Made by a program: the position numbers and the translations under genes. The notes under the pieces were generated by a model. The model ran no database searches. It had not been told where the DNA came from and saw only the letters and a list, made by a program, of their open reading frames with translations. DNA of 64,000 bases from a virus. Taxonomy: Duplodnaviria > Heunggongvirae > Uroviricota > Caudoviricetes. The stretch lies in IMG/VR virus record IMGVR_UViG_3300025292_000002, positions 33,568 through 97,567 of that record; one strand, written 5' to 3'. Positions 10,437 through 59,663 of the stretch are shown piece after piece; positions within the stretch are counted from its first letter, which is position 1; each line of letters opens with the position of its first letter.

Positions 10437-11027
10437 TTAGATTGCTAATCCTCGCATTAATAAAAGGGATTGCAATTTTTCTTTTGTTTTGCGTACACGT
10501 TGGTTTGCTGCTTGGCGAGAAATTCCACGCATTTCAGCTAAAACTGTTGAATTAAATTCATGAGGATATAAAATACATAACAGCTCTTCTTTTTCACGAT
10601 TGTCTGTATGTTCCTCGATAACTTGCATGATTTCTTCGCCAACGATGCCACCATATGTGAAATCAACTTCATCTTGCTTGAACATATCTTCATATGTTAA
10701 ATCTTCAGAGTCGCCAAGTGTTGCGTTCATTGAAACAACGCCATAGCTTGTACGTTTTTGAGCTGTGATTTTTTGTGCTTCGTTACCTGTTACCTTTTTT
10801 AATTTGAATGTTAAAAATGTTGAGAAAGCATGCTTTTCATCGTATTCTTCAAACGCTTTCCATGTTTCAAGCTTCATTTCTTGAATCATGTCTTCACGTT
10901 CAATTGAATTGAATTTGCTGATTGCGATGTTAGCTGCTTTGTTAATCATACGATTAAAATGTTTTAAAACCTCCTCGTATGTCATTTCCTTTTTAACACC
11001 GTTTGATAAGATAATAGTTTTTTTCAT
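10437..11027 (-). CDS. phage-encoded sigma-70-family (ECF-like) sigma factor
   Basis: region-2-like LETWKAFEEYDEKHAFSTFLTFKLKK and region-4 helix-turn-helix MRGISRQAANQRVRKTKEKL; 196 aa. Confidence 0.75.
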   Translation of the reverse strand: MKKTIILSNGVKKEMTYEEVLKHFNRMINKAANIAISKFNSIEREDMIQEMKLETWKAFEEYDEKHAFSTFLTFKLKKVTGNEAQKITAQKRTSYGVVSMNATLGDSEDLTYEDMFKQDEVDFTYGGIVGEEIMQVIEEHTDNREKEELLCILYPHEFNSTVLAEMRGISRQAANQRVRKTKEKLQSLLLMRGLAI

Positions 11028-15848: not shown

Positions 15849-15949
15849 TATTTTTCCTCCTTAGATAATTGCCAAACTGCTAACAATGTTATTAATATTC
15901 CAACCATCATACCTAAGCCGAATGCTGCGATGAAAACACTTGTATCCAT
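15848..15949 (-). CDS. small membrane protein (~33 aa)
   Basis: TAATG coupling at both ends; hydrophobic. Confidence 0.35.
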   Translation of the reverse strand: MDTSVFIAAFGLGMMVGILITLLAVWQLSKEEK

Positions 15950-16239
15950 TATTTATCCATCTTTGGCAAGTCGATTTTTTGAATTATATAATCTGAGCCA
16001 TAATGAATCGTTACAGTGTTCCCTACAGCCATCAATCTGGCTGTTTTGTCGTCTATTACGCCCATTTGATATTTATTACCATCTTTTTCGAAATATGCTT
16101 GATTGTTGGATTCAAATTTTCGGTATTGATTCTGCATATCAACAATTTTCACATTTTCCATTGTTTGAAGCTTTTCAGGTTCTCCGCAACCTGCTAATAA
16201 AGCTACGGAAAACACACAAGCTATAACTTTTTTGAACAT
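15949..16239 (-). CDS. putative lipoprotein
   Basis: signal peptide with lipobox LLAGC. Confidence 0.55.
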   Translation of the reverse strand: MFKKVIACVFSVALLAGCGEPEKLQTMENVKIVDMQNQYRKFESNNQAYFEKDGNKYQMGVIDDKTARLMAVGNTVTIHYGSDYIIQKIDLPKMDK

Positions 16240-16436
16240 GATAGTTCCTCCTCGATTTCATCAATCATATCAAGCACTATATTATAAGCTGATACTCTTG
16301 ATTCCCAATACCCAAGGTCGTAACCTGCCATAAATTGCTCATTGTCCTTGTGAATCCGTCGTAAATCGGAAAAATCAGAAGCACGTTGATTTGCATGTCT
16401 AAGTCTCCCACGGACAGCTCTTTCTAAATCTTTCAT
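16221..16436 (-). CDS. hypothetical protein
   Basis: 71-aa ORF. Confidence 0.45.
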   Translation of the reverse strand: MKDLERAVRGRLRHANQRASDFSDLRRIHKDNEQFMAGYDLGYWESRVSAYNIVLDMIDEIEEELSCSKKL

Positions 16437-33162: not shown

Positions 33163-34893
33163 CTAGAAAACAATATTTTCTATTGTAATTTCTTCTGCAA
33201 AAGCTTCTTCATTTGAAAATTCAACTGCTTCTAAAACCACTTGAGTGGCTTCTCTTCCCAGCCAATTGTTGATTGTCGGACGACCTATGAAATCTAATCT
33301 CAGCTGAGGAGCAAACCCAGCTGTGAATTTGTCGGCTGTTTCTTGAGAAGCTCCGTACATGACAAATTCTACATCGTCAACATAAAACGTCAGCATCGAA
33401 CCTTTTTGTTTAATGTTTTTCTTTTCAACATCAATTCCGACGTATGCAAACAATGAATCATGAACTTTGCCACCGAAAATAAATTTGTTTCTGTCGAGCT
33501 CATGAATGATTTCTTTATCAACTACGCCACGAGAAACATAATCGACCTCGTGAATAAATTCTCGAGCTTCAACTTTCTTTCGGAATGTTTTAAATAAATC
33601 AAATTTTTCTTTATCAATTTCAATACCGAAAGCTTGGTCATGACCTTGTGCAAATTCTACAAGACCTGTATCTTGGCACCAATCTTTAAAGCTGTCCATT
33701 GTTGGGTCATATCCACGACCTGAACCAGAAAATTTGCCATCTCGTTCACGCAAAATCAATACTGGTTTTTGAAGCTTGTTAACCATTTTTGTTGCAATTA
33801 ACCCTGTTAATGAAGCATGATTATCGTTAATTTTGCCAACACCAATTGCAATTCCGCCATCGCTGACGATATCTTCTTCAATTTGAGCTACTGCTTTCTT
33901 AACAGCTGTATCTTGACGAGTTTTACATTTAATAGCTATATCAACTGCCATTTGCTGTAAATTAAGGTTGACTTGGATTTTGTCAAATTTCTTTGTTTCT
34001 TTATTCTTTTTACGCTTTTCAACGGTGAAAATTTCTGGGTTAATATCGTTTAAAGCTCGGAATAAAATTTCTTTTTCTTCCATTGAGCCAATACGAATTA
34101 CAGCGTTTATCATCGGAATAACAGAAAATGACAAATCTTTAGGAACAGGTTGGAAAATGTCTTTGATTTTTAAAGCTTCTTTGATGAACTTGTTTTCCAT
34201 ATTTTTGATTCCATCAAATACTAAATTACGAACTTCATTTTCAGAGATGTCTGAAGCATCTGAAATTTGTCCTAAAGCCACTAAATCTTTCAATTTTTCG
34301 GTGCGATTTGTGTTTAAAGCTTTATCCATCGCTTGACAGAATTTGTGTACTACGCCAACACCAACTAAATTAGTGTTCACATTTTCGCTAATTTGATTGT
34401 TGATGATAATTCCGCTCTCTGGCATTTCTTCAACTAAATGGTGGTCAAGCACAATTACTTCAACGCCCATACCATATAAAATATCAAGTTCTCTGGCATC
34501 GTTTGAAGCTGCATCTGGGATGATTATTAACTCATAATTTTTTTCAGAAATTCTTTCCATAATATCTTCGGTCAAACCGTGAGCTTTTTTATCATGAATG
34601 ATAAAATCAATATTGTAAAGTGGGTCAATTGATTTTAAATATTGATATATATATGAAGCGCTTAAGAATCCGTCAGCATCTGAATCGACCAAAACAGCCA
34701 TTTTGCTGTACGTCATTAAATGTGCTGCAAGAACTTGTATTCCTTGAACCATATTTTTGAAAGCAAATGGGTTTGTGTCGGAAGAATTATCAGGATTTAA
34801 AAACAAATGAATGTTTTCAATACCTCGATTGTTTAAAATTGTTCTAACAATATCTCCGTTGTATTCACCAATTTGTTTGTATTTTAATGTCAT
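33163..34893 (-). CDS. DHH-family phosphoesterase (RecJ-like ssDNA exonuclease)
   Basis: DHH motifs DSDADGF, VLDHH; DHHA1-like C-terminus; 576 aa. Confidence 0.75.
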   Translation of the reverse strand: MTLKYKQIGEYNGDIVRTILNNRGIENIHLFLNPDNSSDTNPFAFKNMVQGIQVLAAHLMTYSKMAVLVDSDADGFLSASYIYQYLKSIDPLYNIDFIIHDKKAHGLTEDIMERISEKNYELIIIPDAASNDARELDILYGMGVEVIVLDHHLVEEMPESGIIINNQISENVNTNLVGVGVVHKFCQAMDKALNTNRTEKLKDLVALGQISDASDISENEVRNLVFDGIKNMENKFIKEALKIKDIFQPVPKDLSFSVIPMINAVIRIGSMEEKEILFRALNDINPEIFTVEKRKKNKETKKFDKIQVNLNLQQMAVDIAIKCKTRQDTAVKKAVAQIEEDIVSDGGIAIGVGKINDNHASLTGLIATKMVNKLQKPVLILRERDGKFSGSGRGYDPTMDSFKDWCQDTGLVEFAQGHDQAFGIEIDKEKFDLFKTFRKKVEAREFIHEVDYVSRGVVDKEIIHELDRNKFIFGGKVHDSLFAYVGIDVEKKNIKQKGSMLTFYVDDVEFVMYGASQETADKFTAGFAPQLRLDFIGRPTINNWLGREATQVVLEAVEFSNEEAFAEEITIENIVF

Positions 34894-40664: not shown

Positions 40665-42317
40665 TTAACCGTGTAAGATTTCACGAATTTCAGCTAACGT
40701 TTGGTCACGTAATAGCTCGCCATCTTCAAATACTGTTTCTAATAGGTCAGGCGTTTTAACCGTTTGGTCTTTGAATAATCCGTCAACAAATTTGATTTCT
40801 CCGTCTGGACCTTCATGAACATGAACTCGACCACGTTGAGATTTCTTAGTGCCATCATCTGTTTTCGGGTCTTTGAATAGTAAACGTTCTTCTCCATCTA
40901 CTTGAGCATACGTAGCTTTCATTGCAAATCCAAACGTATCTCGAGTGTTGTATTGATAAGTGAAACTGCCAATTCCGAATACTACGTTTGTGCTTGCGAA
41001 ACCTTTAGCTTCAAGTTGTGTTACAATATCACGAGCACGTTCTAATGTGATTGAATCACCGTAAATAGCTCCAATGTGAGTATCAAGCAATTTATATCCT
41101 TGGTCAGTGATTGTTCCACCGAAAATGTCCCACAGACATTCAATTAAACCTTTACGCTCTAATTCAGTAGCTCCATTTGGGTCACCGCATAGGATTTTTA
41201 CAGGGTCGCCACTGTCAGGACGAATAACAACTCGACCATCACGTTCCATGATTTCTTTTTTCAGCTTCGGTAGGTATTCGCCAACAACTTTCCAGAAATC
41301 CCAAGTATCAGATACTACAGAGAAGAATCCGTTAGCATATACTTCCGTGATTAAATGTTTGAATAAATCAAATTCGTTTGTTTGTCCGTAACTGCACATT
41401 ACTGAGTGTTCAGTTGCTGGGATTGAAGTACCAACCATTTCTTCTTCAATGTTAGCATTGTAATATTTTTCTAACATCATGATTGAAGGAATTGTGTCAG
41501 TTCCTGAGAATGATAATAAATGACCTGCGCCAGAGCTAATTGAAGCTTCAAGTGCACCCATGCCACGCATTGAGAAATCATGACCTTGGAATTCTACACC
41601 AGCTGTAGAACCAGTTGTTAAAATTGCGAAATCATTCAACAATTGACGGTATTCGTAGGCAATTGTAGCTGATGTCATTGGTAACCAAAATTCATTTGAA
41701 AGCAATGTTTCTAAGTAATTTGTTAACCAGAAGAAATCTTTGTGTGTGTTTTCAATTGTAACGATTGGAGTTTTCATTGGCACACGAGTTCCTTCTTTTA
41801 AAGCTTTAATTCTGATTGGTAAATATCCCAAGTTGTGTAAAGCTTCGATGTGTGAAGCGTCAGGATTTTGATTGCCAAGCGTATGTTTAAGCACACGTTT
41901 GTATTCTTCAACAACTTCAAACAATGGACGGCTGAAGAAATGTTCATTGAAGTAATCAATAATGTATTTTTTAATAGTTGATTGTACACCGAACACAACC
42001 ACTTTTTCAGCTTGTGGGAAGTATTTGTTGCTTCTTGGAGTCCAAGTAGAATAAATAAATTCCGTGCTGAATGGATATTGAATCATATGAGAAATCTTGT
42101 AAAAATCACAAAGCAATGTTGCTGGGAAAATTGTTTTTCTTTGTGCTGGTACTTTAGCAAAGAAGTTTTCATCTAACCATCGTCTCGACACTTCATGTCT
42201 GCTTGGTTCATCGTCGATGAAGTATAAAGTGCCATCTTTATCTTGTTCTAATTCATAAACTTTCCCTTGAGTAAAGTAAGTTCCAATGTTTGTGTTTGCA
42301 ATGTATTTTGTTATCAT
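40665..42317 (-). CDS. nadV: nicotinamide phosphoribosyltransferase
   Basis: 550 aa; NAMPT-family length and motifs (GTDT...). Confidence 0.8.
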   Translation of the reverse strand: MITKYIANTNIGTYFTQGKVYELEQDKDGTLYFIDDEPSRHEVSRRWLDENFFAKVPAQRKTIFPATLLCDFYKISHMIQYPFSTEFIYSTWTPRSNKYFPQAEKVVVFGVQSTIKKYIIDYFNEHFFSRPLFEVVEEYKRVLKHTLGNQNPDASHIEALHNLGYLPIRIKALKEGTRVPMKTPIVTIENTHKDFFWLTNYLETLLSNEFWLPMTSATIAYEYRQLLNDFAILTTGSTAGVEFQGHDFSMRGMGALEASISSGAGHLLSFSGTDTIPSIMMLEKYYNANIEEEMVGTSIPATEHSVMCSYGQTNEFDLFKHLITEVYANGFFSVVSDTWDFWKVVGEYLPKLKKEIMERDGRVVIRPDSGDPVKILCGDPNGATELERKGLIECLWDIFGGTITDQGYKLLDTHIGAIYGDSITLERARDIVTQLEAKGFASTNVVFGIGSFTYQYNTRDTFGFAMKATYAQVDGEERLLFKDPKTDDGTKKSQRGRVHVHEGPDGEIKFVDGLFKDQTVKTPDLLETVFEDGELLRDQTLAEIREILHG

Positions 42318-56022: not shown

Positions 56023-56415
56023 TCAACAACTTATTTTTAATTCGCTTCCTTTAGCTTGATTACAATCTGCACACATTGGTTGATAGTTGCTAAAATGGTT
56101 AGCTCCACCCTTACTGCGTGGTATGATATGGTCCTTGGTCATCATCACTTCTTCGCCTTTAGCGTTAACTCCGTACAAATTGAAATGGTACGTTGGACAT
56201 TGTGGATTACGTTCTTTAGCAAAATATGTTCCTTTCATACCACATTCAACACAAACAACGCCTTTATGCTTGAATAGCTCATATCGTTGAGAATTCATTT
56301 TGATTAAATCGCCATCCCAATCAACTTTACTTTCTTTATTGGGAACAGTTGAAGGAACTGTAAGTTCCAACACCGCTTCCACATCATATGTTTCTTTACG
56401 AATATAATTACACAT
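56023..56415 (-). CDS. HNH endonuclease
   Basis: HIIPRSKGGANHFSNYQPMCADCNQAKG; zinc cysteines. Confidence 0.75.
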   Translation of the reverse strand: MCNYIRKETYDVEAVLELTVPSTVPNKESKVDWDGDLIKMNSQRYELFKHKGVVCVECGMKGTYFAKERNPQCPTYHFNLYGVNAKGEEVMMTKDHIIPRSKGGANHFSNYQPMCADCNQAKGSELKISC

Positions 56416-57779: not shown

Positions 57780-58724
57780 TTAACACCCTTCAGCAAATTC
57801 AATTTTTGTAGCATGTTGAGCTATTTTTTTGGCAATCAATGTAATTAATTGACCAACTCGTTGAGGTGTAATATCGAAATGTGGCGCAATGTCAACATTC
57901 TTTTCACCTTCACGGATTAAGCTATACATAACACGTTCACGAGGCGTTAGCAATGTTTCATCAGCTAATTGTTCAAAAGCTGCAACAATAAATGCTAGTT
58001 CGTTGTCTGGCTCGAAATCGCAAAACGTTCTCATTAAAGCTTCAACGTGTTTTTCATTTTTAAAATCAATTACATCTAAATCATATTCCGTGCTTTCAGA
58101 TGGATTAGCATTGTAACCGAATGTGCCAAGTAATTGGTCTTTAACAGTAATCATATCTGTTTTAATTTGACCGCTAGCACGAGTTAATAAATAACGGTTG
58201 CCAGAAGCGTCAAGGTTTTCTTTTTTAAGCTTGTGTGAAATGCGGTCAAGTTCTGCTTGATAAGCTCGTAACACTTCGCCAACCAATCCTTCACGTTTCA
58301 AATCTTTTGTTGTAATAACTTGCGCTTTAGATTTTTTGTAATTCTTTTTGGAGCGAACAAGGAAATGAATTACAGTGTCCTCGTTTGAATCAGACGCCAT
58401 TCCTTCAATTGAATTTTCACGTTGAATTTTCTTTTGAAAATACTGTTCATCTGTGTGGAACACATAATTTGTTTCAATTTTTTCTTCCTTGATTTCATCG
58501 GAATTTAGCAAATAGTTAGCTAATGTTTCCACTGTACGTGCTACATTGTCTTCATGTGATAATTTATCTGAACTGTTCAAATTCACTTTCATATTGTTAA
58601 AATGCTCAGCAATATCTTCTTCTCGACCTTCTAAGACAGCTTCAACAATTGCTTTTCTGTCTTCTAATTTTGTTTGTTTATAATCAATACCATCTCTGAT
58701 TAGAGCTAATTCTTCCACCTTCAT
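57780..58724 (-). CDS. sigma-factor-like protein with sigma-70 region-4 / LuxR-type helix-turn-helix C-terminus
   Basis: LLTPRERVMYSLIREGEKNVDIAPHFDITPQRVGQLITLIAKKI; 314 aa. Confidence 0.45.
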   Translation of the reverse strand: MKVEELALIRDGIDYKQTKLEDRKAIVEAVLEGREEDIAEHFNNMKVNLNSSDKLSHEDNVARTVETLANYLLNSDEIKEEKIETNYVFHTDEQYFQKKIQRENSIEGMASDSNEDTVIHFLVRSKKNYKKSKAQVITTKDLKREGLVGEVLRAYQAELDRISHKLKKENLDASGNRYLLTRASGQIKTDMITVKDQLLGTFGYNANPSESTEYDLDVIDFKNEKHVEALMRTFCDFEPDNELAFIVAAFEQLADETLLTPRERVMYSLIREGEKNVDIAPHFDITPQRVGQLITLIAKKIAQHATKIEFAEGC

Positions 58725-58829: not shown

Positions 58830-58859
58830 AATAAAAAAACCAACCATAACGGTTGGTTC
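58830..58859 (-). terminator. rho-independent terminator
   Basis: hairpin aaccaacc-gtta-tggttggtt followed by T7. Confidence 0.6.
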
Positions 58860-59215
58860 TAATAACTTACTTGTATCTGCTTTTTACCAAATTGGTTAGC
58901 AACTTCAATTGAATCAAAGTAAACATCTACTTTATTTCCTTTAATCGCATTGCCCGTATCTTCAGCAATGTATTCTCCGTCCATGTAATCATACGGTGCT
59001 GGGAAGTCGATTTTTACTTTAGTTCCCAAAGGAATTACGTTAGGGTCTGTAGCAATAGTACGACCTTGTTTCACGGTTGTTCCGCTGGCTGTTAGGTTGC
59101 CCCACTTTTGAGCACTCAGCATATCGCCATTTTCCCAAGTGGAATATGCGGTAGCAATGAATGTCATTGTGTTACCTACTGGTGGTGTTTCGTTTGTTAC
59201 TTTTGCACTGCTCAT
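58859..59215 (-). CDS. 3D-domain (MltA/YuiC-like peptidoglycan-hydrolase-related) ORF with no RBS, probably the -1 frame extension of 59224..59604
   Basis: FIATAYS...GNLTASG...IATDP.VIPLGTKV...YIAEDTGNAIKGNKVDVYF; only caagccct precedes the ATG. Confidence 0.5.
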   Translation of the reverse strand: MSSAKVTNETPPVGNTMTFIATAYSTWENGDMLSAQKWGNLTASGTTVKQGRTIATDPNVIPLGTKVKIDFPAPYDYMDGEYIAEDTGNAIKGNKVDVYFDSIEVANQFGKKQIQVSY

Positions 59216-59223
59216 AGGGCTTG

Positions 59224-59233
59224 TTACTTTTTT
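59224..59233 (-). other. candidate -1 programmed ribosomal frameshift site (A_AAA_AAG heptamer immediately before TAA)
   Basis: minus strand reads tcA AAA AAG TAA. The -1 frame continues open into the 3D-domain ORF as V T S P M S S A K. Confidence 0.45.
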
Positions 59234-59604
59234 GAATCTAACTCATTCCTCAGCTTTTCTTTTTCCGCAATGACCTGTTTGTTCTTTTCATTCAATTCTG
59301 CATTTGCTTGTTTTTGCTGTGTGAGAGCTTCATTGGCCGATTGTAATTCTTGTTGAACTTTCGTTAATTCTTCTTTTGAAGAATCTAATTCCGTTGCAAC
59401 ATCTTCAAATCGCTTAGTGATTGTTTTAACTTGCTCGTGATTTTCTTTAGATTCTTTTTTGGCATCTACAAGCTTTTCTTCAACTTTTACTTTTTCTTGA
59501 TACACCGTATTATAATTTTGGAATCCCACATAACTCATCGCTGATGCACCAACTGCTAGTGAAAAGAAAGCGGTGAGAACATGTTTACTTGTGAATTTTA
59601 ACAT
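59224..59604 (-). CDS. membrane-anchored coiled-coil protein (frame-0 product; putative N-terminal part of a frameshift fusion)
   Basis: N-terminal TM/signal-anchor; 90-aa coiled coil; strong RBS next to the palindrome. Confidence 0.55.
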   Translation of the reverse strand: MLKFTSKHVLTAFFSLAVGASAMSYVGFQNYNTVYQEKVKVEEKLVDAKKESKENHEQVKTITKRFEDVATELDSSKEELTKVQQELQSANEALTQQKQANAELNEKNKQVIAEKEKLRNELDSKK

Positions 59605-59618
59605 ATAATTTCCTCCTA

Positions 59619-59636
59619 TTGAATATTAATATTCAA
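59619..59636. repeat. 18-bp palindrome family copy (perfect), abutting an RBS
   Basis: minus strand reads TTGAATATTAATATTCAAtaggaggaaattatATG. Confidence 0.85.
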
Positions 59637-59663
59637 CTCCACATTAGTGGAGCTGAATAATTA

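Follow-up and report, generated by a model that had tools for sequence, protein, structure and literature searches.

The window considered here is the whole stretch of DNA that was analysed, 64,000 nucleotides (nt) corresponding to positions 33,568 to 97,567 of the IMG/VR record IMGVR_UViG_3300025292_000002. It belongs to an uncultured large phage with a GC content of 34% and nearly all genes on one strand. On the minus strand, it contains two adjacent open reading frames (ORFs), referred to below as ORF1 and ORF2, which, judged by their relatives, are two halves of one ancestral single-chain gene for a cell-wall enzyme of the 3D-domain type. The frame break between the halves is real and is located at a slippery heptamer, where ribosomes probably produce some full-length protein by slipping into the -1 frame. 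The locus lies in a DNA-metabolism region, not in a lysis cassette, with a DNA ligase gene on one side and unannotated genes on the other.

Layout of the locus

ORF1 (59224..59604, minus strand) encodes 126 amino acids (aa), which comprise a hydrophobic N-terminus followed by a single long helix of the coiled-coil type, and its 3' end reads GAT TCA AAA AAG TAA. ORF2 (58859..59215, minus strand) encodes 118 aa in the -1 frame, i.e., a linker tail and a complete 3D (double-psi beta-barrel) domain, and its ATG (59215) is located 8 nt past the TAA of ORF1. The end of ORF1 contains the heptamer A_AAA_AAG (59227..59233, minus strand; six A residues and a G) in 0-frame phase, and the 0-frame stop TAA (59224..59226, minus strand) abuts this heptamer on its 3' side. 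Past the heptamer, the -1 frame reads ...F K K V T S P M S S A K... and is open into ORF2. On the 5' side of the junction, the last -1-frame stop is a TGA at 59243..59245 (minus strand), where frame 2 reads KAEE, stop, VRFKKVTSPM; the two frames can thus be joined only within approx. 18 nt, the A-run included. A -1 slip would give a product of 248 aa (...NELDSKK-VTSPMSSAK...). These features confirm what an original prediction, made from the letters of the DNA, had claimed about the end of ORF1, the in-phase heptamer, and the open -1 frame. The -1 fusion that it proposed does exist as a reading, the exact predicted size being 248 aa in place of approx. 245 aa, whereas the homopolymer, described there as A7, is actually a run of A6 followed by G.

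A crude gene call returned 97 ORFs in the window, nearly all on the minus strand, and a Shine-Dalgarno (SD) match of at least 5 nt was present in about 80 of them. ORF1 is preceded by AGGAGG (59612..59617, minus strand), which is placed 7 nt before the ATG and has an anti-SD duplex energy of -10.2 kcal/mol. At the ATG of ORF2, this energy is -1.0 kcal/mol, and none of 90 called genes is as weak, which bears out the earlier description of the 3D-domain ORF as devoid of a ribosome-binding site (RBS). An internal ATG, Met17 of ORF2 (59165..59167, minus strand), is a possible independent start that would give a signal-less catalytic domain. This codon coincides with the beginning of the conserved domain and has a weak AGGT 6 nt on its 5' side (59174..59177); the duplex energy at this ATG (59167) is -4.8 kcal/mol, and 5 of the 90 genes are no stronger. 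Terminator-like hairpins are found on both flanks, one between the DNA ligase gene and ORF1, just ahead of the ORF1 RBS (59630..59659, minus strand), and another, accompanied by a T-run, immediately past the ORF2 stop (58836..58860, minus strand). Therefore, ORF1 and ORF2 make up one bracketed unit.

The encoded protein and its relatives

Residues 9-27 of ORF1, VLTAFFSLAVGASAMSYVG (59524..59580, minus strand), form a hydrophobic segment with a Kyte-Doolittle maximum of 1.56, which is a putative signal peptide or signal anchor; an ASA/M motif in the ORF1 N-terminus suggests possible signal-peptide cleavage. In ORF2 alone, a Kyte-Doolittle scan revealed no hydrophobic segment. ORF2 by itself thus lacks an export signal, and the 3D-domain polypeptide would possess one solely in the hypothetical -1 fusion with the ORF1 N-terminus; on the predicted features, this fusion is the only form that unites the catalytic domain with an export signal. 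Between the two parts, fusion residues 126-145, VTSPMSSAKVTNETPPVGN (59171..59226, minus strand, read in the -1 frame), constitute a linker that is predicted to be disordered and aligns with variable S/T/P-rich linkers of the homologues.

The catalytic 3D domain (fusion residues 146-248; 58862..59170, minus strand) is complete, as had been proposed, and its assignment to the YuiC/MltA type is supported by both sequence and fold. ORF2 matches the Pfam family 3D (PF06725) with 66.5 bits (cutoff 23.8, E=2.5e-18) and the Bacillus subtilis YuiC chains 4wli, 4wlk, and 4wjt with sequence E values of about 2e-10. An AlphaFold model of the fusion (mean pLDDT 82) contains a helix at residues 6-125, a disordered segment at 126-145, and a beta-barrel at 146-248; pLDDT is below 50 at residues 128-142 and about 80-94 over the barrel. 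Foldseek searches with this model returned YuiC (4wlk, 4wli, and 4wjt, E about 2e-6) and MltA (2pic and 2ae0, E about 4e-4). Residues D187, D216, and D227 (D57, D86, and D97 of ORF2) are intact, are invariant in an alignment of homologues (A1), and are matched to D129, D151, and D162 of YuiC in the DP, DTG, and D-x-Y motifs. The three YuiC residues are the family-defining aspartates, among which D162 is catalytic (PMC4499186). Thus, the ORF2 domain is predicted to be a 3D lytic-transglycosylase domain of the YuiC/MltA type. Moreover, ORF2 exhibits no decay: the three catalytic aspartates are kept, and 118 codons are open despite the GC content of 34%. As to the role of the full-length protein, one may guess at a local remodelling of the wall in the course of infection. 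In the model, the position of the frame break is the boundary between the long helix (to residue 125) and the disordered linker (from residue 126).

Two further matches of the 3D domain concern phage tails and related particles. The same model (approx. residues 146-248) also matches chain H of the baseplate of diffocin, an R-type bacteriocin (8v3w, E=2e-5), which suggests that contractile-tail baseplates employ a 3D-like barrel. The 3D-domain matches also include SPO1 gp12.1, whose annotation is 'tail protein with lysin activity'.

Homologues of the fusion are single-chain proteins with the same order of parts, in agreement with the claim that membrane anchor, coiled coil, and 3D domain are the architecture of a single-chain family. 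Positions 10-114 of phrog_6631 (251 positions) match ORF1, and positions 140-247 match ORF2, i.e., the two matches are colinear. A tblastn search with the virtual fusion identified 50 phage records with a one-piece, one-frame match covering at least 80% of the fusion; they include Tsamsa-like phages and SPO1 gp2.8, and the listed records cover 85-100%. The top 24 homologues found in a search of 5.8 billion proteins are single chains of 194-276 aa that align with the fusion from the N-terminus to the C-terminus. All homologues in alignment A1 have a hydrophobic N-terminus, and the junction is aligned within the variable S/T/P-rich linker ('ELD-SKKVTS' here, 'ELE-SKPVASS' in Bacillus wiedmannii proteins). 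On the strength of these alignments, ORF1 and ORF2 are read as the two halves of one ancestral gene, and the split copy departs from every phrog_6631-type family member inspected, all of which are single ORFs.

The closest relative is especially informative. The nearest homologue (P0001) is encoded on a JGI contig of 1,983 bp (L006) that is syntenic with the window, with identities of 67% in the ligase C-terminus, 72% in the 3D domain, and 61% in the downstream 314-aa gene. P0001 is one uninterrupted ORF, and BLASTP with the fusion gives a single high-scoring segment pair (residues 1-248 against 16-276, E=2e-65). The original prediction had named orthologues as a place to look for the conservation of the device, and this syntenic one shares neither the heptamer nor the frame offset. 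Of the 120 best homologues, none is of the split type, and the 90% identity clusters of ORF1 and of ORF2 are singletons. L006, found via P0001, is the only relative shown to be syntenic; the gene contexts of two other homologues (P0004 and P0015) are not syntenic with the window. With megablast and blastn, no close relative was detected in 50,697 phage records, bar the gene for nicotinate phosphoribosyltransferase (NAPRT), and the window ligase is at most 47% identical to the ligase of any isolate phage. A protein search of viral_contigs for relatives gave no match, and a search of metagenome_contigs gave only one (L004), which is weak and irrelevant. The exact DNA pattern of the junction with A4-A9 had no match in viral_contigs and genome_contigs. 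A scan of genome_contigs with alignment A1 returned chiefly chromosomal 3D loci (Paenibacillus and other Firmicutes) that match in the 3D part only, and it provides no base rate for split copies.

A frame break within a homopolymer, which the addition of one A would repair, immediately raises the possibility of a sequencing or assembly error, in which case the true genome would have A7 and a plain in-frame gene of 248 aa. However, five contigs of separate sources, including the 97.6-kb ENA contig k141_65391 (ERZ27252043) and JGI 3300005515, encode proteins identical to the 126-aa and 118-aa halves, and the split proteins are recorded in JGI/IMG, Logan, ENA, and MetaClust. The retrieved loci match the window with 100% identity, and the window as a whole is 100% identical to k141_65391 and to a JGI contig of a different sample. 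Furthermore, the exact fused versions expected from A7 or A4 are absent from a collection of 15 billion proteins, and the run is merely A6. An error, which the original prediction had kept as an escape route, is thus so improbable that it may be set aside, and the frame break is real.

Decoding of the junction

The explanation we favour, with moderate confidence, is a recent frame break at which compensatory or incidental slippage yields some full-length protein, and not a conserved programmed device. The ancestral gene would have encoded an exported protein that began with a hydrophobic signal or anchor and continued with a long coiled-coil helix, then a disordered linker, and finally the YuiC/MltA-type 3D domain. 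A lineage-specific loss of 1 nt in an A7 run (TCA AAA AAA GTA ACA to TCA AAA AAG TAA CA) would then have broken the frame at the helix/linker boundary, and the deletion itself would have generated A_AAA_AAG followed by UAA, an intrinsically shift-prone arrangement. The majority of ribosomes would stop at UAA and release the 126-aa helical protein, and a minority would slip by -1 (...ELDSKK-VTSPMSSAK...) and produce the 248-aa full-length enzyme. The slip might involve tRNA-Lys in tandem on AAA AAG or peptidyl-tRNA-Lys alone on A_AAG with UAA awaiting in the A site, and a GAGG located 14 nt upstream possibly assists it. Loss of one A in A7 would by itself account for the heptamer, for its phase, and for the stop next to it, so no selection is needed. 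By analogy with the B. subtilis cdd gene, the fusion fraction could lie anywhere between a few and several tens of percent. Slippage during transcription was also considered and judged unlikely, as the run is only A6; the known cases involve runs of about 9 or more.

The propensity of this heptamer to shift is documented in other bacteria. Of the -1 heptamers tested in E. coli, A_AAA_AAG is the one most prone to shift, and its slipperiness depends on a single tRNA-Lys(UUU), a situation that applies to about half of bacteria (PMC5009743). Slippage at this site exceeds 1% in tested bacteria even where it is unprogrammed (PMC10861913, PMC5009743), and the heptamer rescues 1-bp deletions of lambda cI, again unprogrammed (PMC10861913). 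The GAGG (59248..59251, minus strand) is a candidate SD-like stimulator. It is the sole GAGG in ORF1 and uses a rare Arg codon (AGG accounts for 25 of 720 Arg codons), and an exact GAGG 9-15 nt upstream is found at 1% of coding positions. SD-like elements stimulate -1 shifts at a spacing of 9-14 nt (PMC5009743). Nonetheless, the role of GAGG as a 5' stimulator is suggestive only.

Several points weigh against the proposed slippage. GAGG is a 4-nt match at the outer limit of the stimulatory range, and its duplex energy (-5.6 kcal/mol) is matched by 8.6% of coding positions. No 3' stimulatory stem-loop or pseudoknot was found, as the 57 and 107 nt downstream of the heptamer fold like shuffled sequences (z -0.89 and -0.57). 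A host tRNA-Lys(CUU) would lower slippage on AAG; no tRNA genes, and hence no phage tRNA-Lys, occur within the window. The slippage that would make the fusion, its level, and the mutational history, including the A7 ancestor of the run, are what we infer from the sequence. Finally, because all available copies are 100% identical, neither the age of the break nor selection on it can be measured.

The original prediction had presented the junction as a candidate programmed -1 frameshift. In its strict sense, this would mean a selected, fixed ratio between the 126-aa exported coiled coil and the 248-aa lytic-transglycosylase fusion. The slippery site was recognised correctly, and it is a perfect, in-phase heptamer whose phase is rare elsewhere: of the 37 AAAAAAG that genes contain (coding sequence of approx. 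57 kb), only 3 have the slippery A_AAA_AAG phase, as against 28 with AAA_AAA_G and 6 with xAA_AAA_AGx. The chance of an in-phase heptamer inside a single 18-nt junction window is roughly 1 in 1000. However, a deletion within an A7 run accounts for this coincidence equally well as selection, the motif plus stop being its automatic outcome. The spacing of the GAGG fits the stimulatory range (PMC5009743) and also cdd (PMC10221552), but by energy this element is unexceptional. The position of the break at a modelled domain boundary suggests that both products would be well-formed, and the lack of an RBS at ORF2 also fits. It might be added that the split allele alone is seen in all datasets holding this phage; these datasets are clonal, and persistence therefore says little about selection. 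Above all, the syntenic orthologue and all 24 nearest homologues are uninterrupted, and a 3' structure was not found. Thus, neither conservation nor a stimulatory structure supports the word 'programmed', and a truly programmed frameshift is considered quite unlikely. We give an equally slim chance to a newly evolved, lineage-specific frameshift of the cdd type that would use A_AAA_AAG, the GAGG, and the adjacent stop as its signals and would set the ratio of a catalytically empty coiled coil to a transglycosylase-bearing scaffold. That selection has favoured two products is conceivable yet unsupported.

It is also conceivable that no meaningful fusion is made, either because the gene has been inactivated and is a pseudogene in the making or because the halves act as separate proteins. 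In the latter case, ORF2 would be translated weakly, via termination-reinitiation at its ATG or from Met17, and the signal-less product might act from the cytoplasm in an endolysin-like manner once the membrane is breached at lysis. Such a scheme would be served by the ATG 8 nt past the TAA and by Met17, with its weak AGGT, at the start of the conserved domain. It would also agree with the failure to find strong frameshift stimulators, with the accessory nature of the 3D coiled-coil family, which is variable across phages, and with the existence of a 3D-only homologue that has no signal (P0080). However, P0080 is the exception among seven small 3D-only homologues inspected, the other six having their own hydrophobic N-terminus, and all Sps/3D proteins then known are reported as predicted to be secreted or anchored (PMC1084345). 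In addition, in a genome that depends strongly on good SD sequences, none of 90 genes has a weaker RBS than the ORF2 start, and ORF2 is undecayed. Since the heptamer exceeds 1% slippage in the bacteria tested (PMC10861913, PMC5009743), zero fusion is unlikely. Taken together, the absence of a meaningful fusion is regarded as unlikely, although somewhat less so than a truly programmed frameshift. Slippage across a recent indel, as proposed above, would leave some protein in which the catalytic domain is combined with an export signal.

Parallels with known systems and phage context

The best parallel to slippage at a recent frame break is provided by B. subtilis cdd. According to PMC10221552, which cites Mejlhede 1999, cdd undergoes a -1 shift at CGA_AAG with an efficiency of 16%, 9 bp before the stop and with an RBS-like sequence 14 bp upstream; in PMC5009743, this shift is classed as incidental. 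The two cases share a Firmicute setting, an RBS-like sequence 14 nt upstream, and the lack of a 3' structure; tRNA-Lys slips from AAG to A_AA in cdd and would do so here, and either shift lengthens the protein with -1-frame residues, the stop being 9 bp off in cdd and 0 bp off here. They differ in that CGA_AAG adds 13 residues in cdd, whereas the full A_AAA_AAG would add a 122-residue linker and catalytic domain here, and in that the cdd shift was measured at 16%, whereas the present junction is known from sequence alone. Compensatory ('savior-indel') frameshifting is also known from G-run mutants of the herpes simplex virus (HSV) thymidine kinase (PMC5009743). Like the rescue of HSV thymidine kinase (PMC5009743) and of lambda cI (PMC10861913), the present case would combine a homopolymer indel with a slippery run at or near the lesion, on which some ribosomes regain the frame, and would need no dedicated stimulators; those cases, however, were selected or engineered in the laboratory or in patients, whereas this is a natural phage allele found in several metagenomes.

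Classical programmed sites are less similar. The heptamer is identical to those of E. coli dnaX (tau/gamma) and IS911, a 5' SD-like element is possibly present, and the products would share their N-terminus. However, the dnaX and IS911 sites are accompanied by a strong 3' stem-loop or pseudoknot and recur in relatives, and neither holds here; moreover, the dnaX shift truncates the protein, whereas the shift considered here would extend it. Among phage genes, the tail assembly chaperones G/GT and T7 gene 10A/10B use -1 shifts near a stop, are conserved over large phage groups, and encode virion assembly proteins. The present locus resembles them as a phage gene with a short product by termination and a long product by a -1 shift near the stop, but it is lineage-specific and concerns a cell-wall enzyme gene in a DNA-metabolism region.

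At the level of the protein, the catalytic domain resembles the YuiC/Sps (3D) lytic transglycosylases and the SPbeta Sps protein YorM in sequence, fold, and the three aspartates. The order of hydrophobic segment, coiled coil, linker, and 3D domain is the same as in the phrog_6631 family (Tsamsa gp99, SPO1 gp2.8), from which the present copy differs by a frame break where the coiled coil meets the linker. For annotation, ORF1 and ORF2 are better described as one frameshifted gene, encoding a predicted exported lytic transglycosylase of the YuiC type, than as two hypothetical proteins.

The locus is thus a single-lineage candidate for a known phenomenon, in which -1 slippage at A_AAA_AAG or A_AAG near a stop compensates for a homopolymer indel, and it opens no long-standing question. 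If slippage were confirmed, this would be a natural case in a Firmicute-type phage of a homopolymer indel partly rescued by its own slippery site, and it would closely parallel cdd, the one measured case from Bacillus. A slippery site born from an indel is a proposed first step in the origin of programmed frameshift sites. If, instead, the frameshift were truly programmed, the locus would show, in nature, how a homopolymer indel gives birth to a recoding site, and the dosage of a phage cell-wall enzyme would be controlled by recoding. To our knowledge, no earlier case of such control exists.

Other features of the window concern its relationships and the neighbourhood of the locus. The NAPRT gene (e.g., 40672-41828) has 76-80% DNA identity to Tsamsa-like Bacillus siphophages. 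Directly downstream of the locus, the 314-aa gene (57780-58724, minus strand), which is syntenic in L006 with 61% identity, has no Pfam match; by inspection, its C-terminus is helix-turn-helix-like (HTH), possibly similar to sigma region 4. A few genes downstream, among small unannotated genes, a 130-aa HNH endonuclease gene (56023-56415, minus strand; PF01844 / PF14279) may be a mobile homing-type element.

The two other in-phase A_AAA_AAG heptamers are located elsewhere on the minus strand. Lysine codons in the window comprise 1358 AAA and 299 AAG, and the low count of the slippery phase may be due to mild avoidance of the motif or simply to codon usage. At 16221-16239, the genes 16436..16221 and 16239..15949 overlap at the second in-phase heptamer (approx. 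16233): the former, of 71 aa, ends in TCA AAA AAG TTA TAG, and the latter, in the -1 frame, starts with ATG TTC AAA AAA GTT. With an SD about 12 nt upstream and a stop nearby, the geometry is cdd-like. A phage-wide habit of placing A_AAA_AAG at gene ends was nevertheless rejected, and the overlap is regarded as coincidental, as the downstream gene (16239..15949) has its own strong RBS (GAGGAGG) and a lipoprotein-type signal, MFKKVIACVFSVALLAGC. The third heptamer (approx. 10794-10800) lies near codon 75 of the gene 11027..10437, which encodes a sigma-70-like protein of 196 aa, in which Pfam Sigma70_r2 is matched at residues 40-73 and an HTH at 154-185. A -1 slip there would reach a stop after 4 codons (ATT AAA AAA GGT AAC AGG TAA) and truncate the protein past region 2, in a dnaX-like manner.

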